A DNA stretch of 28,280 bases from a virus: UHGV virus genome UHGV-0263858, one strand, 5' to 3'. The position numbers and the translations under genes were made by a program. This document shows, piece after piece, positions 1 through 19,086 of this stretch (position 1 is its first letter; each line of letters opens with the position of its first letter). Below the pieces are notes generated by a model. The model searched no databases and was not told where the DNA came from. It saw only the letters and a list, made by a program, of their open reading frames with translations.

Positions 1-992
1 CGAACCAGCCAGACCAGCATCAGGATAATCGCGACTAACAGTATCCACAGCGCGGGACGCGTTGCCATATTTTGCAACGTGTCCATCATCGGTGGAAAAG
101 GATTAAGCAGCGGTTGCATATCACGCGGATCAATCCCTTTAACCCGCCGTTGATAAAGCTGATTAAGAATATCCTCGGCCTGGGCAGAAGAAAGCGATGA
201 TTGCGCAGAAAGGCCATATTTTTGCTGGATATATGCCGATAACGCCGCCAGTTCACTGGCATCTAAAGGTTGTTTTAGCGCCATCTGTAGTGATTCCAGC
301 GTCGGCGTATTTTGCTGGCTTAACGTCTGGCGCGCCTGCAACCAGGTCACCAGATGGTTAAACAGTTTCGCTGGAATTAACTCGCCATCTTTCACCCCGG
401 AAAGTTCCAGCATCGATTGCCAGATCTGTTTGCTGGGTTCCCCCGTTGCCGCCGCAAGTTTGGTCACCAGCTGTTTGAGCGCATTGTGCTCCGCCGGTAA
501 TAAAGGACGGTCGGTCGCCTCGCGCTGCTGCGGTTGCGGAATAACCATCTTCCCTTCCTGCAACAGGGTGAGAATGGTTTTTAATTGCTCCGGTGAGAGC
601 TGATTCAGCGGCGTCTGACCAAAGTTATGACGGATATAATCCGTGACCGCCTGACGATTATTCCCCAGACGTAAATACTCGCCTAATTGCGCTAAAAGCT
701 GGCGGGCAGAATGGCTTTTTTGCGCGGCCAGCAGACGTTGCGCCAGATTATGTTCAGCGGCAGGGAAGTGACGCGAAAGCAGCGGTGAATCTCCCGACAG
801 ACCAATATCGTGCCTGATACCCGCCCACAGTTCTGCTCTTTGCTGTTGCGTCAGTGAGGTCACTTTCGTCATTAAGCTTTCCAGCGAAGTACGTTGCTGA
901 CTGGATAAAGGCTGATTGCCCGCGCCAGACGGCAGGTTATCTCCCTGACCTGGTGGTTGCCCAGGAGGAGGGCCGGAAATAGGTTGTATCAT
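1..992 (-). CDS. hypothetical membrane-anchored protein, 3'-partial (runs off left edge)
   Basis: Continuous minus-strand frame from ATG at 992 to position 1, verified codon by codon. N-terminus MIQPISGPPPGQPPGQG is Pro/Gln/Gly-rich, followed by three loosely repeated helical segments and a hydrophobic stretch (ALWILLVAIILMLVWLV) at the window edge. Not in the ORF track because it has no stop in the window. Family not recognised. Confidence 0.5.
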   Translation of the reverse strand, partial: MIQPISGPPPGQPPGQGDNLPSGAGNQPLSSQQRTSLESLMTKVTSLTQQQRAELWAGIRHDIGLSGDSPLLSRHFPAAEHNLAQRLLAAQKSHSARQLLAQLGEYLRLGNNRQAVTDYIRHNFGQTPLNQLSPEQLKTILTLLQEGKMVIPQPQQREATDRPLLPAEHNALKQLVTKLAAATGEPSKQIWQSMLELSGVKDGELIPAKLFNHLVTWLQARQTLSQQNTPTLESLQMALKQPLDASELAALSAYIQQKYGLSAQSSLSSAQAEDILNQLYQRRVKGIDPRDMQPLLNPFPPMMDTLQNMATRPALWILLVAIILMLVWLV

Positions 993-1131
993 TACGTATC
1001 CTTATACCTGAAATCTTCGCAAGTATGCCTGGCCGCGAGATTATGGCACACTTGTCCGGTTAACTCTCGTCTCATACAGGTAACACAAACGTGAAAATCC
1101 TTGTTGATGAAAAAGATGATTGGTTAATTTA

Positions 1132-1155
1132 TTGATATAAAAGGATTTATATCAA
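1132..1155. promoter_or_regulatory. perfect 10-bp inverted repeat TTGATATAAA-(4 bp)-TTTATATCAA, candidate operator
   Basis: Palindrome read directly in the intergenic region between the divergent genes starting at 992 (minus) and 1312 (plus). Confidence 0.3.
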
Positions 1156-1311
1156 CGTATGTCCACGCAGTGACCACATTTTCGAGATATAGTTAAAGCC
1201 CGTAAAATATGCGGGCTTTATAATTCTTGCTTTGCCCTCTTTTCAAACCATAAAATTTGTGTGCCTTTTTGGGGTGGTTAGTTTTATCTTTGATATTATG
1301 GAGAATTATTC

Positions 1312-2052
1312 ATGCTTCATTGGGTTTGTACAAAATGTCAGTCTAAAAATTCTACGAAGGAATCAGTGTGTCCTGCGTGTGGAACTTCTTTTTGGTCGAC
1401 GCAGAAAAAAGAAAGGAGAGGGTGTTTATTGTTGGTTGTAATGTTCTTCGTTGTGTTTTGGGTTATTGGGCAATTATCCGGAAACGAAACCGATTCACAG
1501 GTAAATAATATTCCATCGAAAGATCATATTGGCGATGAACTTGCTTTATCTGGAGTAGACAAGGCGAAACCGTATTCTTTTGTGCGTTATGATGACATAA
1601 GTTATGCGGGACGAAAGAGATTTAAGGTTTTTATAGTGTCGCCTGAGTCTCAAGATTTAGAATCAAGAGCTTCGACAGCAATGACCGCGGCTATTGAGTG
1701 GCAGAAAGAGAAGAGAGCTGACTTTGTATCTGTGTTGCTTCTACCTACGGAAAATTCTGAAGGTAGTTATCGGTTGGCAATGGTTGATTATTCTCCGGAT
1801 GGTTGCGGAACTGGTGCTGTATGTGATAATAAAAAATGGACTATATTGTCTAGTGACGTAATATTAACGAAATCGCAACTTCAATCTATATCCTTGTGGA
1901 ATGAGTATAAGAAAAAGTTTGCGGGTAATGATGGGATTTTGGATTTAAAGGAAGAAAAGAAATTGAAGCAGTTTATTAGTAAACAGCTAAATATTCCTGT
2001 TAAGGATGTATTTACTCCAGATATTTTTCCTTTAAAGAAAATCGAAGATTAA
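1312..2052 (+). CDS. hypothetical zinc-ribbon membrane protein (C-x2-C...C-x2-C N-terminus, one TM segment, ~185-aa C-terminal domain)
   Basis: ATG at 1312 preceded by GGAGAA. N-terminus CTKCQSKNSTKESVCPACG has two CxxC pairs, then a hydrophobic segment LLLVVMFFVVFWVIGQL. The gene is visibly AT-rich compared with the phage genes. A terminator follows at 2130-2166. Confidence 0.6.
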   Translation: MLHWVCTKCQSKNSTKESVCPACGTSFWSTQKKERRGCLLLVVMFFVVFWVIGQLSGNETDSQVNNIPSKDHIGDELALSGVDKAKPYSFVRYDDISYAGRKRFKVFIVSPESQDLESRASTAMTAAIEWQKEKRADFVSVLLLPTENSEGSYRLAMVDYSPDGCGTGAVCDNKKWTILSSDVILTKSQLQSISLWNEYKKKFAGNDGILDLKEEKKLKQFISKQLNIPVKDVFTPDIFPLKKIED

Positions 2053-2129
2053 CAAAATAAATAGACGAGACTGAATTAGTATTATTGTAATCTTTAACTG
2101 GTACCCTCACTTGTGAGGGCACCAAAAAG

Positions 2130-2166
2130 AAAACCCGCAGTTTTTACGCTGCGGGTTTCTGCTTTG
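2130..2166. terminator. bidirectional intrinsic terminator (stem CCCGCAG/CTGCGGG, flanked by A-run and T-run)
   Basis: Hairpin 2134-2155 followed by TTTCTGCTTT on the plus strand and TTTTCTTTTT on the minus strand. It sits between the converging 1312-2052 gene and the hok-like gene. Confidence 0.55.
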
Positions 2167-2244
2167 GGATGTGTATAGGGTGCCTTATCAGTCTTGCCCT
2201 GACAACCGATTGACGGGGGAATCTCTTCCCCCGTCGCGGTTTCC

Positions 2245-2385
2245 TTACTGTTTACACTGTAAGAACGCCGCAAACTCCGCTCCCCAGAAGCTCATCCGTA
2301 TCTCACACAGTGAACCGTGTAGCATCCAGATGATGAGGATTGCCGTTACGCAGAACGTAATGGCCGTAAGCGATTTTTGCGACAT
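2245..2385 (-). CDS. Hok/Gef-family type I toxin (46 aa)
   Basis: Manual translation gives MSQKSLTAITFCVTAILIIWMLHGSLCEIRMSFWGAEFAAFLQCKQ. It has a single N-terminal TM segment followed by SLCEIR and a C-terminal AAFL motif, matching the Hok/Gef signature (compare hokA ...SLCELH...ELAAFLACK). Start is preceded by AAAGGAGCAAGCGCT. Too short for the ORF track. Confidence 0.8.
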   Translation of the reverse strand: MSQKSLTAITFCVTAILIIWMLHGSLCEIRMSFWGAEFAAFLQCKQ

Positions 2386-2606
2386 AGCGCTTGCTCCTTT
2401 TTCGGGGAGGCGCTAACCTATCACTTGTCTAGGGTAGATGGTTAGGGCCTCGGTTAAACAAAAATGTTTTCCGGGGCCTTTCCACATCCGGCCTTCAGGT
2501 ATTCCCTCCAGCCATCAGCCGAAAGGCACCCGCGCGAATTCTAGCCTGGTTTTTTCCCTTGTTTCAATCCGTTGAGGCCTCTCAGCCTTCTGATATAAAA
2601 TTCCCG

Positions 2607-2672
2607 ACCGCAGACATTATTCAGTCACGCATTTGATACATGCTTCCGCCGGCGTTCGCGCCGGTTTTTTTT
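2607..2672 (+). ncRNA. putative Sok-like antisense RNA (about 65 nt) with its own promoter and terminator
   Basis: Plus-strand promoter-like TTGAGG (2572-2577), 16-bp spacer, TATAAA (2594-2599). A hairpin CCGGCG-TTCG-CGCCGG followed by T8 (2649-2672) lies about 65 nt downstream, antisense to the expected hok mRNA leader. Boundaries are predicted, not measured. Confidence 0.4.
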
Positions 2673-3054
2673 CCGTCCTGTTGCTGCGTAGATCGTCATG
2701 TGCGATCGAGGCTCGGTATTGATCCTTTTTTCAGTTTAATTCTGACTCTTGATTTTGCGCAGGCCGCGCTGCGTCTGGCTTCTTTGTTTGAGGGGTGTTT
2801 AACGCGATCCTTTCGCGATCGTGTCTTGTCCCACGTAAAGTATGAAAACTCTTTTAATATCAGCCTGTTTTCTTTCTCCTGCCATTCATGAGATCGTAAA
2901 AATCCCTCTGAAAACTGCAAAAAATTTCAAAACGTGAAATTTCAGATCTTCGCTTTTCCCTCAGTTGCTGCGCGGGCTGGCGGTCATTTTTGCACGGCAG
3001 AAAACTGAAAAAGTGTTTCGAGACAAAACCCGCGGGTTGGAGGGGGTAGCGCGG

Positions 3055-3094
3055 TTTACGTCACCTCACGCTTTACGTCACACCGTTTACGTGG
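3055..3094 (+). repeat. direct repeats TTTACGTCAC, TTTACGTCAC, TTTACGTGG at 3055, 3072 and 3086
   Basis: Read directly. An inverted copy CACGTAAA occurs at 2833-2840. Non-coding region just beyond the last late gene. Confidence 0.35.
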
Positions 3095-3146
3095 TGTGCG
3101 CATACAGCGCCAGAATGGCACGCAGAACGCATTAATCAGGTGGCAG

Positions 3147-3177
3147 ATATGAAAACGCACGACCGGAGCCGTGCGTT
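3147..3177 (-). terminator. intrinsic terminator closing the late operon
   Basis: Minus-strand hairpin AACGCACG / CGTGCGTT (8-bp stem, 3154-3161 with 3170-3177) followed by TTTTCAT, about 40 nt downstream of the stop at 3215. Confidence 0.55.
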
Positions 3178-3214
3178 GCGTGATGGGCGTTTATGGGGGT
3201 TTTATGCCCGGTGA

Positions 3215-4912
3215 TCAGGCGATAAGGTCACCGTATTTTTCGCGCAGGCTCGTAGCCTGTTTGGCGTCTGCGGCAAGTTCGCTGCTGTTTGTTGGTGCGC
3301 CGGTGTTGCTGTGGGTGTGGTTTGCAGTGTGTGTGGCCAGCAACTGAACCAGATCCAGAATATCAATCAACAACGTCAGCAGATTAAGTCCGGATTTTTC
3401 CCGTGAGCCACCGCGACCAATAAATACTGTCGGGGCTGTAAACTCCAGACCACCGTCCGCCCGGCATGTTCTGCGGCCTCCCACGTTTTCAGTAAGGTCG
3501 CGCTCAATCGTGGATGTCGCCCCTTTGAGTTGAGTCAGCAAACCCTGCGCTACCATCTGGATATGCTCACCGGCTGCGATCGCATAATGACCAGTAGTAA
3601 TGTGTTCTGTCTGGCCTGTCATCAGCTTGCTGGTTCCCAGAACGCTGGTTATGTCGTTTGCCTGTACTGTTGTTGTTCTGGTTGTTGTTGTGCGTTCTTC
3701 CTGATCGCTGTTAATGGTTCGCCTGGCTGAATGCTCCCTGATTTGCTGGTCGGTTTCTCTGTGCCAGCTTCCGTCAGTCGTGACACGCTGAAACACTTCT
3801 GCACGCTGTTGTTGCAGCTGTTCGCCGGGCTTTACATCAGGCAGGTTATGGCCAGCGGGTAAGATTTGCCTGATAACAGGCTTATCCGGGCGTCCTTCAA
3901 TGTTGGATATTTCCACGATGGTGCCTGCTGGCGGGTAGGCAAAACATCCCGCCTCACTGCCAGCCATGGGGACGGGGAGGGGTACTGCCGGGTAAACAGG
4001 CGTATCGCTTTTATCGTTGCCGTTCTCATCAAGCAACTGCACATCGACGGCGTAGCGTGGGCGGAAACTGTCGGCCACATCGCCCAGGGTGGTGGGCTCC
4101 GTTGGTGCAATGACGCGCGCCAGCCGGGTATGTAGCGTACCGCTGGCCAGTTCCGGGAACTGTGTCTCCATTTGTCTGCGTAATGGTGATTTGGAAACAG
4201 GGCTACCTGTGGCGGTAAGGCGCTCCCATGTCAGGGTCATTTTCTCGTTGTTGAGGGCCACACGGGTAATGCGCCCGGCCGGAAGGTTCACGCCCGGTCG
4301 CACAGTTTCCATAAACATGATGTCGATGCTGTTTCCGCCGCTTTGCCCGAGTGTGTACTGTTGCGGAATATTCGGCATCGTAATACTGGCAAATCGTGAA
4401 TCAGCTGCACTTCCCACAAATACAGAACCGTCCGGCATTGGGTGCCAGACGTAATCGCTGATGCTGAATGCACGCCCCAGCTGACTGAGTAACTGCGTTC
4501 CGCTGCCGCTGTGGGTGATGTAGGGAGTTGGTATACTGGCATAATCCGCATCCGGAGTGATAAAAACGATACCGCTTTGTCGCCCCAGATTATCGAGTAC
4601 CCCCCGCAGCGTCGGGTGTTGCATGGAGCAGGGGAAATCAAAATCCAGCACAGCAGCTGCTTCACGGATAAAAAGGCGACGTGAGCCATTTTCAGCAGGT
4701 TGATCGCGCTCAATGTAGCCGGAGAAATAGCGCCATGCTTCGCCGTCACGGCCGAGATCAATTTGCACCATTGCGCCGGCAAGGCTTTTTTCTGGTGACA
4801 GATTGTTAACAGAAATGAAGCCACGACCGGCGGCATTCAGGGTGAGAACAAGGCTTATATCGGCAATTTCCACCCGTTCGCCATTAATCATACAGCGTTG
4901 TATCAATTTCAT
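3215..4912 (-). CDS. hypothetical virion protein (565 aa), last gene of the late operon
   Basis: ATG at 4912 with SD GAGGAAGGG; ATGA overlap with the upstream gene. C-terminus contains THTANHTH (3311-3334), reminiscent of His-rich spike apex motifs. Not recognisable as tape measure, sheath or tube. Confidence 0.6.
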   Translation of the reverse strand: MKLIQRCMINGERVEIADISLVLTLNAAGRGFISVNNLSPEKSLAGAMVQIDLGRDGEAWRYFSGYIERDQPAENGSRRLFIREAAAVLDFDFPCSMQHPTLRGVLDNLGRQSGIVFITPDADYASIPTPYITHSGSGTQLLSQLGRAFSISDYVWHPMPDGSVFVGSAADSRFASITMPNIPQQYTLGQSGGNSIDIMFMETVRPGVNLPAGRITRVALNNEKMTLTWERLTATGSPVSKSPLRRQMETQFPELASGTLHTRLARVIAPTEPTTLGDVADSFRPRYAVDVQLLDENGNDKSDTPVYPAVPLPVPMAGSEAGCFAYPPAGTIVEISNIEGRPDKPVIRQILPAGHNLPDVKPGEQLQQQRAEVFQRVTTDGSWHRETDQQIREHSARRTINSDQEERTTTTRTTTVQANDITSVLGTSKLMTGQTEHITTGHYAIAAGEHIQMVAQGLLTQLKGATSTIERDLTENVGGRRTCRADGGLEFTAPTVFIGRGGSREKSGLNLLTLLIDILDLVQLLATHTANHTHSNTGAPTNSSELAADAKQATSLREKYGDLIA

Positions 4913-5484
4913 GTTTTCCCTTCCTCTTTCACGCTCCCGATGCCAACAGCATCCAGACCAGAGCCAACGGCATCATTGATTTTTTTCCAGAACGAACTTT
5001 GCGTATTCATGCCTTTGTCTGGTGCCTGTTCGCTACCGTTCTGAGTCTGCTGTCTGGCGATGGTTTTCTGCGAACCGCTGCGTGCGGATGCTTTCTCTGG
5101 CACGCTTAATTTTTCCCTGAGAGTAAAGGTGACCTGCCAGTGCATTTTTCCCTGTTGTTCCGTGGCATCAATGCCACCAGAAAATACCCCCTGTCGCATA
5201 TTGATTGCCTTCGCGGTAGCGTTAGCAATGCGATATGTTTTTTTAGCACCGTTGCTTTCTGTTGCCTCCGCAAGCTGAAAAATACGGGTCAGAATAGCTT
5301 CATCGTTAAAATCAATAACCCCCGACACGCGCAGCTCTTTAGCCTTGTTTCCCTGCTGGGCGCTCGTGGTGCTGGTTGACTGTCCGGACATATCTTTGTC
5401 CGGTAGTTGCATGGTGGCGCTGACGGTGATGTTGCGCAGCAGAATGGCTTCCCCGTCAAGCGCAAGGACAATCATCTGGGTCAT
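4909..5484 (-). CDS. hypothetical phage protein (191 aa)
   Basis: ATG at 5484 with SD AGGGA. It overlaps the upstream gene by 29 nt and the downstream gene by 4 nt (ATGA). Family not recognised. Confidence 0.55.
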   Translation of the reverse strand: MTQMIVLALDGEAILLRNITVSATMQLPDKDMSGQSTSTTSAQQGNKAKELRVSGVIDFNDEAILTRIFQLAEATESNGAKKTYRIANATAKAINMRQGVFSGGIDATEQQGKMHWQVTFTLREKLSVPEKASARSGSQKTIARQQTQNGSEQAPDKGMNTQSSFWKKINDAVGSGLDAVGIGSVKEEGKT

Positions 5485-6169
5485 GTAGTGCTTCCCTTAG
5501 TGATGAGAGATTATCGCCGACGAACAGAGTCACAGCTGTAAAAACCCACTCGGGGTGTGGGATGTTTTTTTGTATCAGCACTGCAGCCTGATTAAGGGCT
5601 CCTTTGTAGCAAAAGCGCCACACCGGGCAAAATTTTTGCCGGAGTGCGGCCTGCTGATCAGCGATTTCCTGTAAGGCTTTATCTCTCGCATTCATGAACT
5701 GATGCAGTGATGATGACAATGTTTCCGGTGATGTGGCGGCAGGAGTGGCAGCCTGTGCAATGGTTTCCGCCAGCGACATGCTGCGAGTGGTCTGTGTCGA
5801 CAGCATTATCGGTTCCGGAAGTGATGTTACCGGTCTGGCGGGGATTTGCATTCTGCTGATGGCCAGTGAAAGCTGGCTGGAGATCATGCGGGACATTCGT
5901 CCCACCTCTGGCAACGGAAATGCGCCTGAAAATTGCCTGGAGAGTGATAAAAACTCGCCAGCAGAAGGGGCACAAAACAACAGCGCCACAATGTCTTTTT
6001 CTGTGCTTTCTTTCAGGTAGGGTAAAAGTGCAGATACAGCATTTTCGGGGCTGAGATAACGCCCCGATGGTTTGATGTTTCCGGTATTTTCTGACCATGG
6101 ATGAAGGCAAACCACAGAACACTTAATGTTCATGGCTGACGGGCGCAGAATTGCCTTTTCCCATTTCAT
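5456..6169 (-). CDS. hypothetical phage protein (237 aa)
   Basis: ATG at 6169 with SD GGAGAG and ATGA overlap with the upstream gene. Family not recognised. Confidence 0.55.
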   Translation of the reverse strand: MKWEKAILRPSAMNIKCSVVCLHPWSENTGNIKPSGRYLSPENAVSALLPYLKESTEKDIVALLFCAPSAGEFLSLSRQFSGAFPLPEVGRMSRMISSQLSLAISRMQIPARPVTSLPEPIMLSTQTTRSMSLAETIAQAATPAATSPETLSSSLHQFMNARDKALQEIADQQAALRQKFCPVWRFCYKGALNQAAVLIQKNIPHPEWVFTAVTLFVGDNLSSLREALHDPDDCPCA

Positions 6170-6741
6170 TCTGACTCTCCAGCCTGAAAAGCGCGGATGT
6201 CGGCAAGATTATTAAGGCTATCCAGCACGTCCTTCATCTGTCGCTGACGGCGATAAATCCCGTCGTTGCGATCAGTCTGCGCCCGGGCCATCGCGGCTGC
6301 CAGCTCCTGAAGCTGCGCCATTGTCAGTGTGACAAGGTTATTTGCTGCATCCCCCCATCCCAGCGTTGACCGCGTACCTACAACCTTTGCAGCCATTGCC
6401 GCGGGCGCAATACGACTTATTGAGTCTGCACCACCATTCCAGGTGTGTCCGTTCCATTCGAACGTGAACGGCTGCGCTTCCTGTTCTGTGCGCCATGCTT
6501 CAATTTCTCGTTTTTTAGCGTCCTTTGCTGCTGCGATAAGTTCAGGTGATGCGGTGAACGGGGTTATCTCGCCCCATTTGCCGCTCTGCAGTTCCTGCCA
6601 GATGTGCTGGCCGGTTTTCGCTGTATCGTCTGGCGTGGCTGTGTAGGGAAGTGGGTCTTCCATTCCCTCAAACAGCACGTCGCAGTCAATCGCACCGGAT
6701 TCGGTATAACGGGGACTGGTAATCTCTTTTATCTGCATCAT
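6166..6741 (-). CDS. hypothetical phage protein (191 aa), possibly a fibre-associated chaperone or a tail tube
   Basis: ATG-ATG start at 6741 with SD GAGGG and ATGA overlap with the upstream gene. The C-terminal half (FEWNGHTWNGG...YRRQRQMKDVL) loosely resembles tail fibre assembly-type C-termini. Weak call. Confidence 0.5.
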   Translation of the reverse strand: MMQIKEITSPRYTESGAIDCDVLFEGMEDPLPYTATPDDTAKTGQHIWQELQSGKWGEITPFTASPELIAAAKDAKKREIEAWRTEQEAQPFTFEWNGHTWNGGADSISRIAPAAMAAKVVGTRSTLGWGDAANNLVTLTMAQLQELAAAMARAQTDRNDGIYRRQRQMKDVLDSLNNLADIRAFQAGESE

Positions 6742-8033
6742 GCAACCCTCACAAACAAAGAAACTAAGCCCCGGTTATAAAACTTAATATCCGGGCCGCC
6801 AGATAAAGCGACATATGTACCAGGCAGGGTATCCCTGTAGACAAATGACCTCGCAGCAGCACTAAATCCTGACGTGCGATACTCCGCTTCAAAGACCACC
6901 TGCCGGAGTCTTGAGCCTGACACGCCTTGTGCACGAAGTAACGTAACCTCACTGCTGCCATCGTCCGGTAGGTATGCAGCAAGAACCAGGCCTCCGGGGA
7001 ACGGAGGACGCTTTGATGTATTTTCTGTTGCATACAACAGTTGCATCAGGCGATTACGTGACCAGAACAACCGCGACCATGCTTCTGGCAGGTCTGACGG
7101 ACGCATGGATTTTTTAACCAGTACCTGATATTTCGCAGGACCTTCACCGAATCCCCCATCGTATTCTGCATCACCATGAAACGTTATCCACCGACGCGCT
7201 TCTGCTTCAATACCGGCAGAGTCAATTCCGTATCGTATGTCTATATCCACAAGTCCACGGAAATAAGGTTGCCCCATGTCATACGCAATGATGGGATTAT
7301 ACGAAGTGCTACTCCCTCCAGATTGTGTTACCGCGTAACGCCCGGGGGTGACTTCGAACACCCATTTCAGAAATTCGGCAGGGCCATTTTGGGCGCTGAA
7401 ATACACCACTTCCGACGAAGAGAACACATGCCCGTATCCGAACGCCCCCGGCAGAGCAAGACAACCTGCGGTGCGGTCGTAAATATTGCTCTGGACACCA
7501 AGCAAAGCGGCACTTTTCACCCCCAGATTGTCGCGGGATTCCTGCTGCGCCTCTTCCCCCTCTGCTGCAATCTCTGACAACCGGTTGGAGGTTCTCAGCA
7601 TTGATTTCAGTTCCGGGTAAATATCTACCTGCCAGCTCTGTGGAGGAACGGTAATTTGCGCAGCCTGAGCCACGCCCTGATAAGTAATCGTGAAATTCCT
7701 GACCAGTGACTCGCCAGCATGTTTCTGACGGACAGGGGTTTTTATTACGCCGCACAGTGTTCCGCTGGCCTGATGGATGAGGCAAATCCAGTCATAGCTG
7801 AATGCACAGTCATCAGGAACAACCGCGCTACACACAATATTGTTCGGGCTTAACTGGCCATAGGTCAGTTCATTCACGGTATATGTGATTTTTTCTTCCG
7901 GAACGGTATTATCTTCGCGCGTTGGTTCCCGCTCCATCAGGGCAAAAATAATAGTGTCAGGGCGTGCAGGTAAATTACTGGCTGTGCATTCAGCAACCCA
8001 CTTTTCAAATGCTTTCGTCAACAATGCGCTCAT
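6738..8033 (-). CDS. hypothetical virion protein (431 aa), possibly a second fibre/receptor-binding protein or a divergent sheath
   Basis: ATG at 8033, 6 nt after the tfa stop. Size fits a sheath, but no similarity to P2 FI is recognisable by eye. Confidence 0.55.
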   Translation of the reverse strand: MSALLTKAFEKWVAECTASNLPARPDTIIFALMEREPTREDNTVPEEKITYTVNELTYGQLSPNNIVCSAVVPDDCAFSYDWICLIHQASGTLCGVIKTPVRQKHAGESLVRNFTITYQGVAQAAQITVPPQSWQVDIYPELKSMLRTSNRLSEIAAEGEEAQQESRDNLGVKSAALLGVQSNIYDRTAGCLALPGAFGYGHVFSSSEVVYFSAQNGPAEFLKWVFEVTPGRYAVTQSGGSSTSYNPIIAYDMGQPYFRGLVDIDIRYGIDSAGIEAEARRWITFHGDAEYDGGFGEGPAKYQVLVKKSMRPSDLPEAWSRLFWSRNRLMQLLYATENTSKRPPFPGGLVLAAYLPDDGSSEVTLLRAQGVSGSRLRQVVFEAEYRTSGFSAAARSFVYRDTLPGTYVALSGGPDIKFYNRGLVSLFVRVA

Positions 8034-8039
8034 TACTTC

Positions 8040-8594
8040 TTAATTCTCGCTAATGTTCTGCGGTAATTCTGGCCATACAATTGCGGCATACGATGATTTA
8101 TCTGTAACCTGACTGAATGTCATCTCCCGTAACGTTTTTGTATAAATACGGCATGCTTTCAGTTTTTCCTTGTCTTCGTCGCTGATTAACCCCAGCAGCA
8201 GGTCTTTTTCCCATTCGCTGGTCATGATGCTAACCTGTTTTAACAGTGCATCACGCTCGTCTTCCGCTTTAAGTTTGTAGTCAAAAACAAATGCATCATT
8301 GCGGTAGAACCAGTAACCCGACGCCTCAATGCGACGATTGACGGTAATATCCGGTAGCTCAATCACGCTTTTATTTTCCGGGCAGATTGAGGTGATGTCT
8401 TTTCCAACCCAGACCACTTCGCCAGTTTCAACATAAATAACTTTCAGAGTGTCTGGCTGAAATTTTTCCTGGGCTTCGTGCCATTCCTGACCATCATCGG
8501 AGAACAGCCACAATAAAAATTTATGCTGTCGCGCCAGCTGGTATTGCTCAATTGTTTTAGGGTTTTGTGCCGTAAGATTTTTTAAGTGCATCAT
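8040..8594 (-). CDS. tail fibre assembly protein (P2 gpG / Tfa-like)
   Basis: 184 aa, ATG-ATG start, immediately downstream of the fibre gene. Tfa-like features (WFYRNDAFVFDY, C-terminal acidic helix). Confidence 0.7.
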   Translation of the reverse strand: MMHLKNLTAQNPKTIEQYQLARQHKFLLWLFSDDGQEWHEAQEKFQPDTLKVIYVETGEVVWVGKDITSICPENKSVIELPDITVNRRIEASGYWFYRNDAFVFDYKLKAEDERDALLKQVSIMTSEWEKDLLLGLISDEDKEKLKACRIYTKTLREMTFSQVTDKSSYAAIVWPELPQNISEN

Positions 8595-8596
8595 GA

Positions 8597-9814
8597 TTAC
8601 AAACTCGCTACATTTCGCCAGACGCCATTAATCAGAACCTGCACCGGGCGTGCATTGGCCCAGCCCACACTTTCACCGCCATCAACACCACTCAGTAAAT
8701 GACCTGATGGCGCATTTCCCCCGCGTCCAATACCAATGGCGCCTCCCAGACGCACATCCTGCACACCGCCTGTTTTGGTCTGATAGCGTGCATCAAAGTT
8801 TCCGTAGTCTGACGGTGTTACCCGCCCTGTAACGTTCACCGCCCGGTTGCTTTGTAACGCGCCATTCTGAAAACGGAATACATGCTGTCCATTGGCATAA
8901 ACATCCAGCAGGCCGTCACCATTCTGTTTAAAGCCAGTATCACTGTCACCAATTGCAATTGAGTTTCCGCCCAGCGCGTTCTGAACGCCGATACCCAGCG
9001 CACCATTGACCTGAGAACCGCCGCCAACAGACACTTTATGCGACATGGATATTTCACCCGTCCGCAGATTAATAGTGAACGGTCGAAGTGGACCAATATC
9101 GCCATTCTCGCCCTGACCTTCACTGGTAGGGATAAGGTGCAGGCACTCTTCCGAACGACGAAAAATCAGACCAAAGGCTTCGTTGAAAATCCTCAGCGCA
9201 TTAACACCACGGATTTTCAGTTCCCCGGTCATGGTGTCACCATCACGCTGAACGGCATTTTTTGCCTTGTCCACCGTAGGTTTTAATCCGAGGCTTTCAA
9301 CAGCCTCATCCTTGTCTTCCACATCCGAAAGATTCTTTTTTCGTTGCAGATAGCGTCTGTCTCCGATTTCCTGAGTAATAATGGCCCTGTCCGGATCAAC
9401 TTCCAGCACCACGTTTTGTGCGTGCGTCAGCCCAAGAACCAGCGTCAGAATAACTTCCTTGATAACGGAGTCCGTCTGGTCTGGTAAAAAGGTGTCCGGA
9501 TAACGTCCGTACGCGATAAGCGTACCTCTGTCGCTGATCATCCCCAGTTCACGAAGGGTTTTACCGGGGTATGATTTACAGTCAATCACAATATCCCCGC
9601 TGATGAAGCCCTCCTCCACCGCACCGTCGGAAAAGGGTTCCTGCCCGAATTCGCCGTACAACGATGTCATTGCTGCCATTTCATCCGGCGTGGATGGCAA
9701 TGCCCGCCCGCCCCCGTCACCAAGCAGAACATGCCGGACGGTCACGGTTTGCCCGTTCTGATATGCTGCTTCAATTTCTGCAGCGCCGGACGTTGTCAGA
9801 ATCAGTCCATTCAT
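8597..9814 (-). CDS. tail fibre protein (P2 gpH-like)
   Basis: 405 aa. N-terminus (LILTTSGAAEIEAA...VLLGDGGG) matches the conserved P2 H baseplate-attachment domain. ATGA overlap with the gpI-like gene. Confidence 0.8.
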   Translation of the reverse strand: MNGLILTTSGAAEIEAAYQNGQTVTVRHVLLGDGGGRALPSTPDEMAAMTSLYGEFGQEPFSDGAVEEGFISGDIVIDCKSYPGKTLRELGMISDRGTLIAYGRYPDTFLPDQTDSVIKEVILTLVLGLTHAQNVVLEVDPDRAIITQEIGDRRYLQRKKNLSDVEDKDEAVESLGLKPTVDKAKNAVQRDGDTMTGELKIRGVNALRIFNEAFGLIFRRSEECLHLIPTSEGQGENGDIGPLRPFTINLRTGEISMSHKVSVGGGSQVNGALGIGVQNALGGNSIAIGDSDTGFKQNGDGLLDVYANGQHVFRFQNGALQSNRAVNVTGRVTPSDYGNFDARYQTKTGGVQDVRLGGAIGIGRGGNAPSGHLLSGVDGGESVGWANARPVQVLINGVWRNVASL

Positions 9815-10401
9815 ACACCTGCCTCACTCTGCCCGCCTGTGGGCACTGTCTTTGTTGTCACACCGGTACTTCTGATTTTTTCTGTCGCCATCACATAGCC
9901 GTAACAAAATCCACGCCCTGTGCTGTTCCCGTAAACGTGAATACTGAACCAGCTGCGCAGATTTTTGGCACGGAGCACCGCATGCTTCAGATCCTGATGA
10001 TCATTCATCAGCACCGGTAAATCCTTCTGCTCCACGTTCAGACGAAAGGTATACGGCTCCCCGGGTGGGCTCTGCTCATACCACTCAACAATCTGCGACC
10101 GGAAGGGACTGTCAGCCAGCGATGCCATCAGCGCCGCTTTAGTCCCTCTGTGGCGGTGGATGTAAGCAGCACGTTTTATCGCAGACCTTTTTTCCGTCTC
10201 CGTCCAGTGTTCATTCCAGGTATCCACCGCCATTTCCCAGGCCAGCCATGGCAGCAATTCAGCAGGACATAAATCGGGATTTTTCACATAGCGGATCAGA
10301 CATACTGCGATTTCCGCCAGCATATCACCGGCGGTACTGTCCACCACCCGCTCTGCCCGGCTGGCGCTGACAGGAAGTATGCTTCTGATTTTGTCATTCA
10401 T
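9811..10401 (-). CDS. baseplate wedge protein (P2 gpI-like)
   Basis: 196 aa. Shares the motif CPAELLPWLAWEMAVDTWNEHW with P2 I (CPANLLPWLAWAFSVDRWDEKW). Confidence 0.8.
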   Translation of the reverse strand: MNDKIRSILPVSASRAERVVDSTAGDMLAEIAVCLIRYVKNPDLCPAELLPWLAWEMAVDTWNEHWTETEKRSAIKRAAYIHRHRGTKAALMASLADSPFRSQIVEWYEQSPPGEPYTFRLNVEQKDLPVLMNDHQDLKHAVLRAKNLRSWFSIHVYGNSTGRGFCYGYVMATEKIRSTGVTTKTVPTGGQSEAGV

Positions 10402-11308
10402 CGGTTGTCTCCACCTTGTTCAGCGTTACCTTACGGCACCACGGTGCCTGCCCCATCGCAGGAACGATATCACTGCCCGGAGAGGTCAGATTCACCGTAA
10501 TCACCCCGGTCTGGTGAAGGGCACCATCCATGCCAGAACGGGATGCCACCGAGCCAATCCGGTGGACGCTGTCAGTGTATGACTGCAGCGCCTTGCGGGC
10601 ATTTGCCATAACCAGTTCACCATCCAGTCCGTAGGGAATATGAATATCCGCCACCACATCGTAGGGAATAATTTCTGCCGTCCGGACACTGACAAAATCC
10701 GTCAGGGGACGGGTTTCATCATCACAGACTGATGCTGCCACCTTATCCAGCAGGGGTTGTGATGCAGTGCCATTTCCGGACCGGGATAACACATAAAGAA
10801 AAACACGCCCTTCCTGTGAATGCGTTTCCGGCCCGTAGGCTTTCACATCCAGCACATCAGGATCGGCACTCTGTGCAAAATAGTGATAGGCATTTTTCGC
10901 GCCTGCGGTGCTGAGTCGTGCCCATGACAACTGGATACGTTCGCGAAAAGCATCATCATCTTCATACACCGCAGGCGTGGGCGGGATAGTGCTGTCATCT
11001 GCCGGGGTAATCACCAGACGCTGTACCTGAAAATTCGCACCAATCTGATCCAGGTCGTTCCTTCGGGCGCTCGCAAGCAGTACACCCCGGACAGCATCAT
11101 TGACCTGCTGGCGCATCAGCGCCACCCGGAAAGCCAGCGCCTCTGCCCATTTATACGCGGGATCAGATTCCACCAGAGCCGAAAACAACGTATCCAGCTC
11201 CTGATACTTCGCCACTATCTGAGTGACCAGCACAGCGGTGTCCGGCACCTCCACCGCATCCGGTACCGGTATCGCGGACAGATCAATAATTGCCTGAGAC
11301 GTTGCCAA
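10394..11308 (-). CDS. baseplate assembly protein (P2 gpJ-like)
   Basis: 304 aa. Shares AIIDL near the start and the conserved ITPADDSTIPPTPAV block with P2 J. The first codon appears to be TTG with SD GGAGA; an alternative start is possible. Confidence 0.85.
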   Translation of the reverse strand: MATSQAIIDLSAIPVPDAVEVPDTAVLVTQIVAKYQELDTLFSALVESDPAYKWAEALAFRVALMRQQVNDAVRGVLLASARRNDLDQIGANFQVQRLVITPADDSTIPPTPAVYEDDDAFRERIQLSWARLSTAGAKNAYHYFAQSADPDVLDVKAYGPETHSQEGRVFLYVLSRSGNGTASQPLLDKVAASVCDDETRPLTDFVSVRTAEIIPYDVVADIHIPYGLDGELVMANARKALQSYTDSVHRIGSVASRSGMDGALHQTGVITVNLTSPGSDIVPAMGQAPWCRKVTLNKVETTDE

Positions 11309-11639
11309 TTTTTATCTCCTCGAGTCGAATCGTTTCCTGAGTTTCGTTGTTCACCCCGACAAGCGTCAGCCACGCGCTTCCTTCTCCTGTCCACGTCACT
11401 TCCACCCGCCGGAGAGTCAGACGGGGTTCCCAGCGTTCAAGGGCGGTTACCGTTTCACGAACAATTCTCACCCGCGTGAAATCATCCTGTGGGTTATCAA
11501 GCAGACTGAAAAGTCTGCTGCCGTATTCCCTGAGCAGGACCCGGCTGCCGACCGGTGTTGACAAAATATCAGTGACGGACTGGCGCAGATGTTCGTTACC
11601 GTGCAGATATCTGCCGGTGGCTGAATCAATACCAATCAT
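11283..11639 (-). CDS. baseplate protein (P2 gpW / T4 gp25-like)
   Basis: 118 aa. Motif SVTDILSTPVGSRVLLREYGS matches P2 W (SIGDILRTPVGSRVMRRDYGS). ATG at 11639 with SD GGAG. Confidence 0.8.
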   Translation of the reverse strand: MIGIDSATGRYLHGNEHLRQSVTDILSTPVGSRVLLREYGSRLFSLLDNPQDDFTRVRIVRETVTALERWEPRLTLRRVEVTWTGEGSAWLTLVGVNNETQETIRLEEIKIGNVSGNY

Positions 11640-11672
11640 GTTGTTTACTCCGGAAAAAGAACTGAAAGGAGA

Positions 11673-12296
11673 TTACATTTGCTGACCAGGCTGTCCGGTG
11701 CTGCCACCACTGTCGCCCCGGTGATTGTGACCGTTATAGACAATTCTGATTTGACTCATCGTTCCGTGATAATCAGAAACCTCACCACCGACCATCAGAT
11801 CCGCCTTAACCACCGCCTCAGCATTCATGGTTGCTTTACCCTGTACGGTCAGGGTATCTGTGATTTCTACCGGACCGTCCAGGGTTCCCCTGCCTGTAAT
11901 TTTATAGCTGCCGCCTTCAGCCAGCGTGATGGACAGAACATTAGCCTGACGGTCGTAACGGATTTCCGTTCCGGTATCAAACAAAATAACATGTTCGTAT
12001 TCACTGCCCTCAGGGACAGGAATGGCGTCAATATTGGGCCCCGGATACACCCGACCGTTACGCAGATCGCCCGCCTCCGATATCACTGTAACGGCATCTC
12101 CGGGGGACGGATAATTACTGACCTGCATGTAGCGCCCGGACTGTACCTGAATCCAGGGCAACGGAGGCGAAAGCACATCCCCGATATCCACCCGAACCAT
12201 CACCGGGCTACCCGGGATCACCTCGTCCACCACGCCGCGACGGACCATGTCCGCCACCCTGCGGCGTAACTCTGCCACTTCATCCGCCAGACTCAT
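11673..12296 (-). CDS. baseplate spike protein (P2 gpV-like)
   Basis: Start chosen at ATG 12296 (MSLADEV, SD GGAGGG) rather than the ORF-track extension to 12590. C-terminal YNGHNHRGDSGGSTG matches the P2 V apex motif (HTHKHPGDSGGTTG). Confidence 0.8.
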   Translation of the reverse strand: MSLADEVAELRRRVADMVRRGVVDEVIPGSPVMVRVDIGDVLSPPLPWIQVQSGRYMQVSNYPSPGDAVTVISEAGDLRNGRVYPGPNIDAIPVPEGSEYEHVILFDTGTEIRYDRQANVLSITLAEGGSYKITGRGTLDGPVEITDTLTVQGKATMNAEAVVKADLMVGGEVSDYHGTMSQIRIVYNGHNHRGDSGGSTGQPGQQM

Positions 12297-12843
12297 CACC
12301 GGTGCCCTCCGATTTCCAGATAAGACGATAATCCTGCTCATGTCTCTTGCCGGTTTCCGGTACTTTACCCAGCCAGACTTCCTGTAACGGCGCACCTGCC
12401 GGAACCGCAAACGGATCTTCGCCGACCGGAATGTCCTGTTCAAAAGAGACACGGAAAACGATGTAGTCGTCCAGCAGCCGGTCGAAGGTATCCACCTCAG
12501 CATCGATAAAAACCGCCGGATCAGCGTTATCCAGCCCGAACGTGGCTCCCTCAATCCAGTCAGATAAATCCATCGCGAGACAACGGGCAAAAATCTGCGG
12601 TTTTGGCACGTTTTCCGTCTTCCCGGCCCGGTCTGTCACCACAAACAGATCACATTTCAGCGTGACCCGCGTTTGCCCGTCGGCAAAATGAGCCTTGTCC
12701 CAGCCCGGTACATCCACAAACACAGCAGGCGTCACCAGTTGCGTCACTTTTTCCGGGTACTCATCGGCATCTTCCACCCAGGGAATTTGTTTCAGACTGT
12801 CAATCACCGCCTGATGCCAGGCGCCCATCATCAATGGCTCCAT
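12280..12843 (-). CDS. tail completion / tail terminator-like protein (lambda gpU-like or P2 R/S-like, uncertain)
   Basis: 187 aa, ATGA overlap with the upstream gene. Weak resemblance to lambda U (AVIDSL versus AVLDAL, acidic FVDV segment). Its position between head-completion and baseplate genes supports a tail-completion role. Confidence 0.45.
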   Translation of the reverse strand: MEPLMMGAWHQAVIDSLKQIPWVEDADEYPEKVTQLVTPAVFVDVPGWDKAHFADGQTRVTLKCDLFVVTDRAGKTENVPKPQIFARCLAMDLSDWIEGATFGLDNADPAVFIDAEVDTFDRLLDDYIVFRVSFEQDIPVGEDPFAVPAGAPLQEVWLGKVPETGKRHEQDYRLIWKSEGTGDESGG

Positions 12844-13565
12844 CACTCCAGCCCCTTAAATACCCGGAATTTCAGTTCATGCTCAAAATTTTTCAGGATC
12901 AGTACTTCCGCATCCGGAAAAACAAAATCCTCTATACGGTTCAGCATGGCTTCATAAATATCAATTTCCGCTTCACGCACCCTCCGTCGTCCGGATGTCT
13001 GTCGGATCAGTATCGTTTTCCTTTTTGATATACGTCCGTTACGATTTTCCGCTTCGAACTGGTTGATAAAGGCATCATCCGTTGACCAGGTGCTGACAGG
13101 CAGGGATTCCCCGGCAGGTTTAAAACGGATCTCCCGTGCCTTCCTGCGGTGAGAAGCTGGTGCAAAACGCCCCCGCTCATCGCGCAACTGATGGCGTTCG
13201 CCGCGTCGTCCCCCACTGATGCGTCCGCGCAGATCGCGTACTTTGATGGCGTTCAGACCGAACCATACCTTCGCCTCATCAAACTCATCACCGTTACGAC
13301 GAATGATAAAATTATGCAGAACACGCTTTTTGATCATTTTCTGACTGCGTGGGGCAACCTGTTTTTTAAACTCTGCCATAGCCTTCATCCGCAGTGCAGA
13401 CGCGGCTCTTTTCAGCGCCACGCCCCAGGCTTTACGGATCTGACTTTTTGACCCACCCAGTTTAGCGATAATTTTCAGCACCTCATCTTCATCAATATCG
13501 ACGACGAGGTTTCGTGCCAGCCGTCGCTGCCGGGCACTGCTTCGTTCATGCTCTCTGACTGCCAT
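12843..13565 (-). CDS. virion morphogenesis / tail completion protein (basic; lambda gpZ-like or P2 R/S-like, uncertain)
   Basis: ATG at 13565 (MAVREHERSS). Basic, Arg/Lys-rich protein immediately after the FII homologue, as for lambda Z. Confidence 0.45.
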   Translation of the reverse strand: MAVREHERSSARQRRLARNLVVDIDEDEVLKIIAKLGGSKSQIRKAWGVALKRAASALRMKAMAEFKKQVAPRSQKMIKKRVLHNFIIRRNGDEFDEAKVWFGLNAIKVRDLRGRISGGRRGERHQLRDERGRFAPASHRRKAREIRFKPAGESLPVSTWSTDDAFINQFEAENRNGRISKRKTILIRQTSGRRRVREAEIDIYEAMLNRIEDFVFPDAEVLILKNFEHELKFRVFKGLE

Positions 13566-13950
13566 AACGTTTACTCGGTCGTTCCGGTGCAGCAGGTGTA
13601 TTTCTCCCGGGCTCTCCACGCGCAAGGGTGATGGTAATCACCCCCTGACCCGCAGTGCCTGACTCATCCCAGCCGGGATCGACTACCTGATAGGGCTCGC
13701 CGTGGATCATGACCCTGTCATATTTTTTCAGACCGGCGGCCCATGCGCTCCGGGTAAATAACACGGGTGCAGTATCACGAATTTCGCCGCTGCCAGTGTT
13801 CATCCCGGTGTTATCTGCCGGGGCATCAAAAACGGCACGGATTTTTCTTTCCGTGCCGCCCGGATATATGCTGATTTCCGTCCCCATCGTATCCAGGATG
13901 ATGTCATCCGCATCACTCATGGCCTGATCGAACAGATTATCGAACATCAT
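13546..13950 (-). CDS. head-tail connector protein (lambda gpFII-like)
   Basis: MMFDNLFDQAMSDADDII matches lambda FII (MADFDNLFDAAIARADETI). Start overlaps the FI stop. Confidence 0.8.
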   Translation of the reverse strand: MMFDNLFDQAMSDADDIILDTMGTEISIYPGGTERKIRAVFDAPADNTGMNTGSGEIRDTAPVLFTRSAWAAGLKKYDRVMIHGEPYQVVDPGWDESGTAGQGVITITLARGEPGRNTPAAPERPSKRYGSQRA

Positions 13951-14315
13951 CACTCCCGGATTTTTTCTGCCAGACCGTCTGCCAGCAACGCGGGAACTGT
14001 GGCTTCATTAACCAGCACAACACTGGAGGCCCGGGCAAACATCAACATTTTTCCCGTCACAGCATCACAGGCTGGCATATGCGCCGTTTTCAGCATACGC
14101 ACCCGGGCGAGTCCCTGCTCAGAATGCATTCCGTCGCCGGATGCATCGTTGCCCACCTCCTCCTTCCCCGTCTCCTCCCCATCGAATCCGGCGGCCTCCT
14201 CCTCCCATTCCGCCAGACGCTGCTCGAGATCGGCTTTTGAACCTGAAATATCTGCTTCACGCCCCAGAATCACTGCCAGTTCCTGCAAACGTTCAGTCAT
14301 CTGCTCTTTTGTCAT
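13950..14315 (-). CDS. DNA packaging/head assembly protein (lambda gpFI-like)
   Basis: Start at ATG 14315 (MTKEQMTERLQELAV), similar to lambda FI (MTKDELIARLRSLGEQL). The ORF-track extension to 14447 would run through the upstream terminator. Confidence 0.75.
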   Translation of the reverse strand: MTKEQMTERLQELAVILGREADISGSKADLEQRLAEWEEEAAGFDGEETGKEEVGNDASGDGMHSEQGLARVRMLKTAHMPACDAVTGKMLMFARASSVVLVNEATVPALLADGLAEKIRE

Positions 14316-14330
14316 CACATCTCTCCCGTG

Positions 14331-14360
14331 CGCTAAAGAAAAAGGCGGGAATATCCCGCC
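14331..14360 (-). terminator. intrinsic terminator (attenuator) after the major capsid gene
   Basis: Minus-strand hairpin GGCGGGA-TAT-TCCCGCC followed by TTTTTCTTT, between the E-like stop (14366) and the FI-like start (14315). Confidence 0.55.
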
Positions 14361-14365
14361 CCGTC

Positions 14366-15394: not shown

Positions 15395-15462
15395 AATTTA
15401 TATTCCTTCAGAAACACAAACGGGCCGCATCGCGACCCGTTTTTCAGTTAATCACTTCACCA

Positions 15463-15798
15463 TCAGGCGTGGCTGATGGCACTTCCCACAAATGCGTTGG
15501 CTTTTTTCACCGCATCCACAGAGTCAGGCCAGACCAGCGACTCAGTGGCAAACGTACCGCTTTTGTAGTACGTCAGCGTGGGTTCTGTTCCGGTAAGCGC
15601 CAGAGCCAGCACCCCCACTGCCGTTCCGGCTTTCTGACCATCCCATGCCACCAGTTTTCCGGTGGCGTCATCCACCATCAGTGGCGTCAGTGCAGGTGTG
15701 GCAGCACTGATACCACTGGTGGCGGTTGCGGTATGCGCCGGATCGCTTCCGGCAAAAATGCGCACATCTGCACGCTTTTCCGTGGTGGTTTTAATCAT
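15463..15798 (-). CDS. head decoration protein (lambda gpD-like)
   Basis: 111 aa. SDPAHTATA...KLVAWDG...YYKSGTF matches lambda D. SD CAGGAG upstream. Confidence 0.88.
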   Translation of the reverse strand: MIKTTTEKRADVRIFAGSDPAHTATATSGISAATPALTPLMVDDATGKLVAWDGQKAGTAVGVLALALTGTEPTLTYYKSGTFATESLVWPDSVDAVKKANAFVGSAISHA

Positions 15799-19083: not shown

Positions 19084-19086
19084 TCT

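Follow-up and report, generated by a model that had tools for sequence, protein, structure and literature searches.

The 28,280 nt stretch of DNA analysed here (the window) carries five coupled minus-strand genes at positions 3215-8033, at a place where tail tube, sheath and tape measure genes would be expected, which raises the question of what these genes encode. The initial annotation found none of them recognisable and proposed that they specify highly divergent contractile-tail components, an unusual short-tail or injection apparatus, or a cargo operon. It is very probable that they are the ordinary distal late genes of an HP1-type (Peduoviridae) myovirus prophage residing beside flk, and that the window joins two different prophages within the tail fibre gene H.

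The operon is arranged as first described. Successive starts and stops of the five genes overlap by 4 nt in three cases and by 29 nt in one, and the starts are preceded by Shine-Dalgarno motifs of the GAGG, GGAG or AAGGG type, that of the first, 431-aa gene being weaker (AAGAAG). A terminator-like hairpin can be read from the minus strand at about 3155-3176 (ACGCACG-N8-CGTGCGT followed by TTTTC), beginning 39 nt past the stop codon of the last, 565-aa gene. The proposed end of the operon at a terminator is plausible on this observation, although a consensus terminator scan does not list the hairpin because its T run comprises only four residues. Beyond it lie hok/gef (2245-2385, minus strand) and a DUF4875 gene (1312-2052, plus strand; PF16175), which form the prophage end of the HP1-type parent, followed by flk in its chromosomal flank (1-992, minus strand); positions 1-2385 are colinear with the flk locus of E. 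coli STEC316 at 100% identity.

On the upstream side the operon is adjoined by further minus-strand genes. The 184-aa tail fibre assembly protein Tfa (8040-8594) matches PF02413 at 2.5e-20 and phrog_136 at 3.4e-53, and its 100% identity to the HP1-type prophage L002 places it on the side of the HP1-type parent. Gene H (8597-9814) is an intact ORF for a 405-aa protein that matches PF12571 (53.8 bits against a cut-off of 23) as well as fibre PHROGs, and informative-site analysis marks it as a hybrid. It is preceded by the P2-type baseplate genes I (9811-10401), J (10394-11308), W (11283-11639) and V (11673-12296), all from a parent with a lambda-type head and a P2-type tail; this block matches PF09684, PF04865 and PF04965, with V matching TIGR01644 phage_P2_V at 2e-19, and is 99.4% identical to the prophage L001 of E. 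coli CFIAFB20190172. Profile matches thus verify the P2-type V-W-J-I-H-tfa block reported upstream of the five genes, and the lambda-type head is likewise confirmed.

The lack of tube, sheath and tape measure genes is borne out for the window as a whole. Pfam and PHROG scans of the large ORFs examined reveal none of the three, and tblastn with the sheath, tube, chaperone, tape measure, U, X and D proteins of both prophage types finds no match in any frame. Nor does the window hold a complete HP1-type tail module, comprising the DUF2586 sheath, tube, chaperone, tape measure, DUF2590 protein and HP1-type J/I wedge. The five genes do not substitute for what is missing: no Pfam, PHROG or NCBIfam profile relates any of their products to P2-type FI, FII, E/E', T, U or X. 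The same searches correct the view that none of the five is recognisable, since four match named fibre or baseplate families (fibre, DUF4376, HP1_ORF34 and 'baseplate protein') in Pfam and PHROGs with E values from 1e-11 to 1e-232, while the 237-aa protein matches only unnamed phage families.

The first two genes form a fibre pair. The 431-aa protein (6738-8033, minus strand) carries a P2 gpH-type N-terminus (PF12571 at residues 3-137, 45.4 bits against a cut-off of 23), and its residues 137-430 match phrog_2636, 'tail fiber protein', at 2.8e-75; the STEC316 copy is named 'phage tail-collar fiber domain-containing protein' in RefSeq. Judged by these matches it is a collar-type second tail fibre, with a predicted N-terminal baseplate-attachment domain followed by a fibre shaft and tip. 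The neighbouring 191-aa protein (6166-6741, minus strand) belongs to the DUF4376 family (PF14301, 56.6 bits against a cut-off of 25; phrog_1141, 2e-81), and its position makes it a candidate for an assembly factor of the 431-aa fibre or for its distal partner; in L001 the second fibre gene is likewise followed by a DUF4376 gene. The fibre gene shares about 95% nucleotide identity with the fibre cassette of the Stx2e phage phiP27, in which L54-L57 encode a fibre, Tfa, a second fibre and the 188-aa L57, and this level of identity extends over window positions 6421-9341. The phiP27 cassette also stands at the end of the late operon, with L57 in the position of the DUF4376 gene, but phiP27 differs in having a Mu-type tail and an operon that stops after L57, with no orf33-35.

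The remaining three genes are homologues of HP1 orf33, orf34 and orf35. The 237-aa protein (5456-6169, minus strand) matches HP1 orf33 at 7e-17 and gp22 of the Salmonella phage SI7 at 2e-28 in BLASTP, and its PHROG matches, among them phrog_1677 at 4e-39, are all of unknown function. A structure model of this protein is of poor quality, and a fold search gave no informative match. The orf33 homologue from ACA1 has been detected by mass spectrometry of virions (PMC10612066 Table S2), and the 237-aa protein is a putative small baseplate or virion-associated protein. The 191-aa protein encoded at 4909-5484 (minus strand) matches PF25759 HP1_ORF34 at 9.7e-54 (182.2 bits against a cut-off of 27) and HP1 orf34 itself at 1e-36 with 46% identity, which identifies it by profile as a 'baseplate complex protein'. 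It is possible but uncertain that it acts as a gpU-like tube initiator: the equivalence of orf34 and gpU is flagged as uncertain in the literature (PMC10612066), hhalign of the orf34 profile against gpU is negative, and neither the orf33 nor the orf34 profile reaches a probability of 10% against FI, FII, E, T, U, X or D of L001. It could yet prove that orf33 or orf34 of HP1-type phages has a new fold or role.

The 565-aa protein (3215-4912, minus strand) aligns with HP1 orf35 over residues 1-564 (BLASTP 1.6e-131, 38% identity) and matches phrog_2258 at 4e-232, being assigned as 'baseplate protein' by profile, and tblastn finds matches in 75 HP1/K139-type phage records. In the structure model the N-terminal 300 or so residues adopt a hub fold of the gpD/gp27/Mu gp44 type, and the remainder is predicted to form a gpV/gp5-like spike consisting of an OB fold, a beta-helix and an apex. 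Foldseek aligns the model over its full length with VgrG and Pvc8 (E values from 1e-12 to 9e-18), the C-terminal half being of low confidence as a monomer, with pLDDT below 50 at residues 353-488. The likeness to hub and spike families lies at the level of the fold, as all sequence matches to spike families fall below threshold, far under the Pfam and TIGRFAM cut-offs (PF04717, E 0.02; PF22178, E 0.01; TIGR01646, 5e-4). The His-rich motif THTANHTH (3311-3334, minus strand; residues 527-534), which had been likened to a spike apex, fits this fold: H532 and H534 form an HxH that is invariant among 30 homologues, and P2 gpV-type spikes are known to carry iron-binding HxH apexes. The 565-aa protein is thus predicted to be a fused baseplate hub and spike with an HxH apex, which would form the central baseplate piece at the tip of the tail tube and would pierce the envelope upon contraction. 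As anticipated it is no tape measure, a candidate role rejected on its beta-rich hub fold in the model and on a lack of any match to tape-measure profiles. P2 gpD and gpV, Mu gp44 and gp45, and T4 gp27 and gp5 are each two polypeptides, whereas the 565-aa protein is one, as in VgrG of the type VI secretion system; the central spike of PVC and Afp (Pvc8/Afp8) is a further comparator. A gpD-gpV fusion in HP1 has already been published, and homologues of orf33, gpD and gpV are detected by virion mass spectrometry (PMC10612066). In RefSeq, orf35 is named 'hypothetical' and orf33 is sometimes left out, despite the hub-spike fold and the published assignment.

The order of these genes is that of the late operon end of HP1, a Haemophilus phage of the genus Hpunavirus (Peduoviridae), where orf31-orf35 encode fibre, assembly protein, orf33, orf34 and orf35. 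The trio measures 258/187/533 aa in HP1 and 237/191/565 aa here, with similarly overlapping starts and orf35 as the last late gene, and SI7 gp22-24, the BLASTP matches of all three proteins, have the same order and terminal position. Comparison with both maps shows that the trio closes the late operon, immediately behind the genes for fibre and assembly protein, an arrangement common to HP1, SI7 and the 75 records of the HP1/K139/Kappa group; phiO18P and ESSI-2 are further relatives of this type. Compared to HP1, identity within the trio is only 25-46%, the E. coli version has the extra fibre and DUF4376 pair between tfa and orf33, and the sheath, tube, tape measure and wedge genes that should lie upstream are replaced in the window by the head and baseplate genes of another prophage.

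It is in this replacement that the explanation for the gap appears to lie, and the initial annotation had missed it. Positions 1-8995 are identical to the HP1-type prophage adjoining flk in STEC316, the identity over 1-9273 being 99.6%. From the other side, positions 8756-16333 are 99.4% identical to L001, with no difference from 8850 onwards across about 1.1 kb compared site by site, and 99% identity extends over 8850-22755. L001 and the window have in common terminase, portal, S49 protease, D, E, FI, FII, neck, V, W, J, I and the N-terminus of H. Past H, L001 continues with two tfa genes, sheath, tube, E, T, U, X, D, fibre 2 and DUF4376, whereas the window has the HP1-type distal genes; 8.5 kb of L001, from the sheath gene to D plus a fibre N-terminus, stand in place of 1.26 kb of the window. 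Differences from L001 end at 8849 and those from L002 begin at 8996, which leaves a crossover interval of 146 nt (8850-8995) common to both parental types, within a region of 0.5-1.2 kb in which the parents are 90-96% similar. Informative sites and identities per 50 nt assign the N-terminal part of hybrid H to the lambda-head/P2-tail parent and its C-terminal part to the HP1-type parent.

The two parents have opposite module orders. In the HP1-type parent the genes for sheath, tube, chaperone and tape measure precede the baseplate genes; L002, L003 and all full-length contexts of the exact 565-aa protein examined have the complete tail module, with genes for the tape measure, DUF2590, J, I and an H of 551 aa among those upstream. 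In the lambda-head/P2-tail parent the genes from sheath and tube through E, T, U and X to D follow H-tfa. Both sets of tail genes are therefore absent because the crossover in gene H joins prophages of opposite module order, which on the sequence comparison would account fully for the gap. A single crossover in the 146-nt stretch would leave head, neck, V-W-J-I, hybrid H, tfa, fibre 2, DUF4376 and orf33-35. The join may have formed by homologous recombination between two resident prophages; since the two types are oppositely oriented in every genome seen with both, such recombination would amount to a chromosomal inversion. Alternatively, a lambda-head/P2-tail phage genome of P2 order may have inserted into a resident H gene. 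Large prophage-driven rearrangements are documented in E. coli (PMC8743559): in O157:H7, for example, homologous recombination between like segments of distinct resident prophages produced hybrid prophages at the inversion ends, whereas the partners here would be two different myovirus types exchanging within a tail fibre gene, as deduced from sequence.

Either two prophages recombined recently or the join is an assembly chimera, and the window alone cannot discriminate between the two. The gene identities would be the same if an assembler had bridged two prophages through their common fibre repeat and no hybrid existed in any cell, a possibility that deserves real weight while being the less probable one. 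The junction falls precisely within 146 nt identical in both parents and inside their region of high similarity, the first 8995 nt show zero differences from STEC316, and a contig of one draft assembly (L013) breaks within the same fibre region, evidence that it is hard to assemble. The exact hybrid H protein has no record in public assemblies, the junction is absent from the other assemblies, viral contigs and metagenomes searched, and none of 5,426 complete E. coli genomes shares the arrangement; no genome was found to carry both parents at about 100% identity, and the lambda-head/P2-tail part is matched at 99.2% at best. Against a chimera, homologous recombination would leave an identical signature, and inverted prophage pairs are known substrates of real E. 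coli inversions (PMC8743559).

The same uniqueness, in complete genomes and in all other collections searched, makes it highly improbable that the window represents a self-sufficient new phage type whose lambda-type head is mounted on a short injection device that has no tube and combines a P2 baseplate with a VgrG-like hub-spike and a pair of fibres. Every ORF is intact, hybrid H included, and neck, wedge proteins, two spikes (V and orf35) and fibres are all in the set, but W, a gp25-type sheath initiator, and the neck proteins belong to a contractile tail, and the idea of a short-tail or unusual injection apparatus gains no support; complete myovirus prophages with sheath and tube match the respective halves of the window fully or at 99% identity. 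Co-assembly is also doubtful, as the P2-type wedge and the HP1-type hub-spike are too diverged for mutual detection: tblastn with HP1-type J and I finds no match in the window and misses even the P2-type J and I encoded there. That the five genes are a cargo or moron operon without a role in the virion has virtually no likelihood left. The position at a prophage end beside hok/gef and the DUF4875 gene is a usual cargo site, yet four of the five proteins match structural profiles and the 237-aa protein, with its unnamed PHROGs only, is still an orf33 homologue; translational coupling to the fibre genes, retention of the trio at the late operon end across HP1/K139-type phages, homologues in virions and the clear hub-spike fold of the model refute this reading. 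Divergent contractile-tail components came closest of the three initial proposals for three of the five genes.

In the form present in the window, the hybrid would be unable to build a tail alone. In a scenario that is improbable as a whole, the join would be real and maintained in the cell, and the hybrid would express its lambda-type head together with a P2-type wedge, the hybrid fibre and the HP1-type hub-spike but neither tube nor sheath, while a reciprocal hybrid elsewhere in the chromosome would carry two sets of tube, sheath and tape measure genes; the two could then complement each other in trans, or give chimeric or tail-less particles. The finding itself has little biological weight, and orf33-35 of the HP1 type are still poorly annotated. 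It serves as a caution that a myovirus baseplate seemingly without tube, sheath and tape measure can arise by recombination or mis-assembly alone, given two prophages with a common fibre cassette but opposite tail-module orders. Should the junction be real, it would be a further case of prophage-mediated rearrangement leaving defective hybrid prophages in STEC-like E. coli.

The five coupled minus-strand genes at 3215-8033 encode proteins of 431 (6738-8033), 191 (6166-6741), 237 (5456-6169), 191 (4909-5484) and 565 aa (3215-4912), all exactly where the initial annotation placed them, and their coordinates bear out three 4-nt stop/start overlaps and one of 29 nt. Two of the reported signals stand in part. 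A purine-rich SD-like motif lies 5' of every start, but that of the 431-aa gene is the weakest of what had been called strong SD sites. The terminator at the end of the operon can be read by eye in the sequence as a hairpin followed by TTTTC at about 3155-3176, 39 nt past the last stop, but this hairpin is not among the terminators listed by a consensus scan. The P2-type V, W, J, I, H and tfa (tail fibre assembly) block described upstream is present and follows a lambda-type head (Nu1, TerL, W, portal, S49 protease, D, E, FI and FII) and neck proteins.

The claim that none of the five proteins is recognisable does not survive profile searches, which match fibre, DUF4376, HP1 ORF34 and baseplate families. 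The 431-aa protein is a second tail fibre, with a PF12571 collar-type N-terminus (45 bits against a Pfam cut-off of 23) and a C-terminus matching the PHROGs fibre family phrog_2636 (2.8e-75), and the first 191-aa protein belongs to DUF4376/phrog_1141 (2e-81). The second 191-aa protein scores 182 bits (cut-off 27; 9.7e-54) against PF25759, 'HP1 ORF34 baseplate complex protein'. For the 565-aa protein the match is phrog_2258, 'baseplate protein' (4e-232), and the 237-aa protein matches only phrog_1677 and phrog_31292, which have no assigned function in PHROGs. Direct BLASTP links the 237-, second 191- and 565-aa proteins to HP1 orf33, orf34 and orf35 (7e-17, 1e-36 and 1.6e-131, respectively), with stronger values still to gp22-24 of Salmonella phage SI7. 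In both HP1 and SI7 this trio closes the late operon, immediately behind a fibre and its assembly gene and with overlaps as in the window. Homology, Pfam threshold, order and position all place it in the HP1 orf33-35 group. Homologues of the 565-aa protein occur in 75 phage records; those listed all belong to the HP1/K139/Kappa/phiO18P/ESSI-2 group and, among the matches listed, the gene lies near the genome end.

The orf33 homologue is annotated inconsistently. The 237-aa gene is called in ETEC1730 but goes uncalled in STEC316 and several other assemblies, where a 91-aa ORF on the opposite strand (5745-6020, plus) is called in its place. The 237-aa frame is conserved down to 48% identity across genera, and this conservation together with the homology to HP1 orf33 favours it over the 91-aa ORF.

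The 565-aa orf35 homologue was modelled with AlphaFold as a monomer on 30 homologues. Residues 1-240 are confident (pLDDT 80-93) and residues 353-488 are poor, as expected for a trimeric spike modelled as a monomer. Foldseek aligns the model full-length to the PVC central spike (9e-18) and to AlgoCIS, Anabaena CIS, Afp8 and T6SS VgrGs, while sequence matches, all sub-threshold, assign residues 310-368 to a gp5/V OB fold and residues 393-442 to a gp5 C-terminal beta-helix. The His-rich THTANHTH motif was correctly noted and occupies residues 527-534 (nt 3311-3334), H532 and H534 being invariant within the orf35 family. orf35 has the hub fold of gpD, gp27 and Mu gp44 and would act as a fused hub and spike in the manner of VgrG, the evidence being weaker for the spike half than for the hub. 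That HP1 fuses gpD and gpV is already stated in print (PMC10612066); literature searches on HP1 orf34/orf35 otherwise gave nothing direct.

The absence of tube, sheath and tape measure from the window was correctly observed: profile scans contain none, and when the sheath, tube, chaperone, tape-measure, U, X and D proteins of the two prophage types described below served as tblastn queries, no frame of the window gave a match. The interpretation built on it for the five genes is only partly supported. They are not divergent tube, sheath or tape-measure proteins, as Pfam, PHROGs and NCBIfam assign them other identities. The trio gave negative results when tested as P2 FI, FII, E, T, U or X, and in hhalign comparisons neither the orf33 nor the orf34 profile exceeded 10% probability against either P2-type FI, FII, E, T, U, X and D or HP1-type sheath, tube, R, S and chaperone. 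Neither a short tail or unusual injection apparatus nor a cargo operon finds support.

Two related E. coli prophage types account for the missing genes. L001, a lambda-head, P2-tail prophage of E. coli CFIAFB20190172, is 99.4% identical to 8756-16333 and 99.0% to 15963-22755, and head-plus-baseplate modules of its type occur in 69 complete genomes. Past H it carries two tfa genes, sheath, tube, E, a 550-aa protein in the tape-measure position, U, X, D, a 667-aa second fibre and DUF4376. A stretch of 8.5 kb in L001 corresponds to 1.26 kb in the window. L002, an HP1-type prophage at flk in STEC316, matches 1-9273 at 99.6%, including flk, a DUF4875 gene and hok, and carries the five genes at its end. 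It runs from a P2-type head through DUF2586 sheath, tube, lysis genes, chaperone and tape measure to DUF2590, J, I, a 551-aa H, tfa, the 431-aa fibre, DUF4376 and orf33-35; the same element occurs at other integration sites, e.g. adjoining raiA in ETEC1730. Site by site, no base differs from L002 before 8996, and none differs from L001 after 8849 over the roughly 1.1 kb compared, so that the window is identical to L002 through 8995 and to L001 starting at 8850. Because of this identity to L002 on the left and to L001 on the right of the breakpoint, the window is read from sequence as a single-crossover hybrid inside gene H (8597-9814, minus). In the L001 parent the tube, sheath and tape-measure set lies downstream of H, and in the L002 parent it lies upstream of the baseplate genes; the window has neither set. 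A simple sheath-to-D deletion from a P2-type prophage was rejected, since the 431-aa gene encodes a collar N-terminus of its own, and all of the left 9 kb, chromosomal flank included, is identical to another prophage, the one at flk.

A second segment, window 6208-7493 and L001 8001-9286 (the C-terminal part of the second fibre and DUF4376), is shared at 87.6% identity, and in some strains (STEC316) the H C-terminus and tfa are also common to both, at about 96%. Crossover between the two types is therefore possible at two sites or more. The flk prophage of the STEC306-308 lineage is a remnant (L008, E. coli STEC306, CP091016.1, 1636652-1658349; locus 3117-6316) in which everything from the head through sheath, tube and tape measure to the wedge genes is deleted but H, tfa, second fibre, DUF4376 and orf33-35 remain intact; ParM, plasmid-stability genes and an 84-aa ORF directly adjoin its 551-aa H gene.

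Accessory content also varies. L001 carries a subtilase cytotoxin (subAB-like) operon of an S8 peptidase and two AB5 binding subunits (34029-35986) between lysis and tRNA genes, which is absent from the window (about 24918-24927), where three tRNAs follow (Gly 25309-25383, Tyr 25500-25584, Thr 25593-25668) against two annotated in L001. The S49 protease/scaffold gene contains diverged internal repeats at 15963-16333 (BLAST off-diagonal shifts of 138 and 276 nt, 79-84% identity), and the alignment with L001 suggests that copy number differs between the two; Tandem Repeats Finder at default thresholds reported no tandem arrays in the window. Between flk and the last late gene lie a hok/gef toxin gene (2245-2385, minus) and a DUF4875 gene (1312-2052, plus) whose GC content is low (about 38%) and whose product starts with a zinc ribbon. 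Homology to the same prophage type at other sites begins only at about 2092-2175, hence the DUF4875 gene may belong to a separate islet or be cargo specific to this site. The lambda-head prophage has two further accessory genes: one at the right end of the window, in a low-GC stretch (27396-28118, minus), encodes a 240-aa protein with a tRNA_anti-like OB domain, and one adjoining the lysis genes (24317-24814, minus) encodes a 165-aa protein with a weak TerB-like match.

The junction is somewhat more probably of biological origin than not. Both prophage types lie in opposite orientation in all genomes seen with both (STEC316, ETEC1730, ETEC1703 and ETEC1717), and a real crossover would therefore invert the intervening chromosome and leave two hybrid prophages; inversion between resident prophages is well documented in E. 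coli (PMC8743559). Alternatively, a circular P2-order phage genome could integrate into a resident H gene and give the same local picture. That an assembler bridged two prophages through a shared repeat is rather unlikely but would look the same, given a 146-nt exact repeat within a region of 0.5-1.2 kb that is 90-96% similar. Among complete E. coli genomes, none spans the window or contains the junction at >97.2% identity; the exact 405-aa hybrid H protein has no record; neither IMG/VR nor the JGI metagenomes contain the exact 191-nt junction sequence; and those full-length contexts of the exact 565-aa protein that were read all show either the HP1-type parent or a remnant left by deletion. 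The idea of a recurrent tube-less phage family was likewise rejected, as no second case occurs among 5,426 complete E. coli genomes, in IMG/VR, in the JGI metagenomes or in a protein/contig index.

The gene-level explanation is identical whether the junction is biological or an artefact. The fibre, tfa, second-fibre and distal-gene cassette is a mobile module that phage phiP27 carries too, at about 95% nucleotide identity (window 6421-9341); the match spans the fibre cassettes only, and the phiP27 tail is Mu-type. Overall, the window holds no new kind of system and its explanation is ordinary and largely already known.
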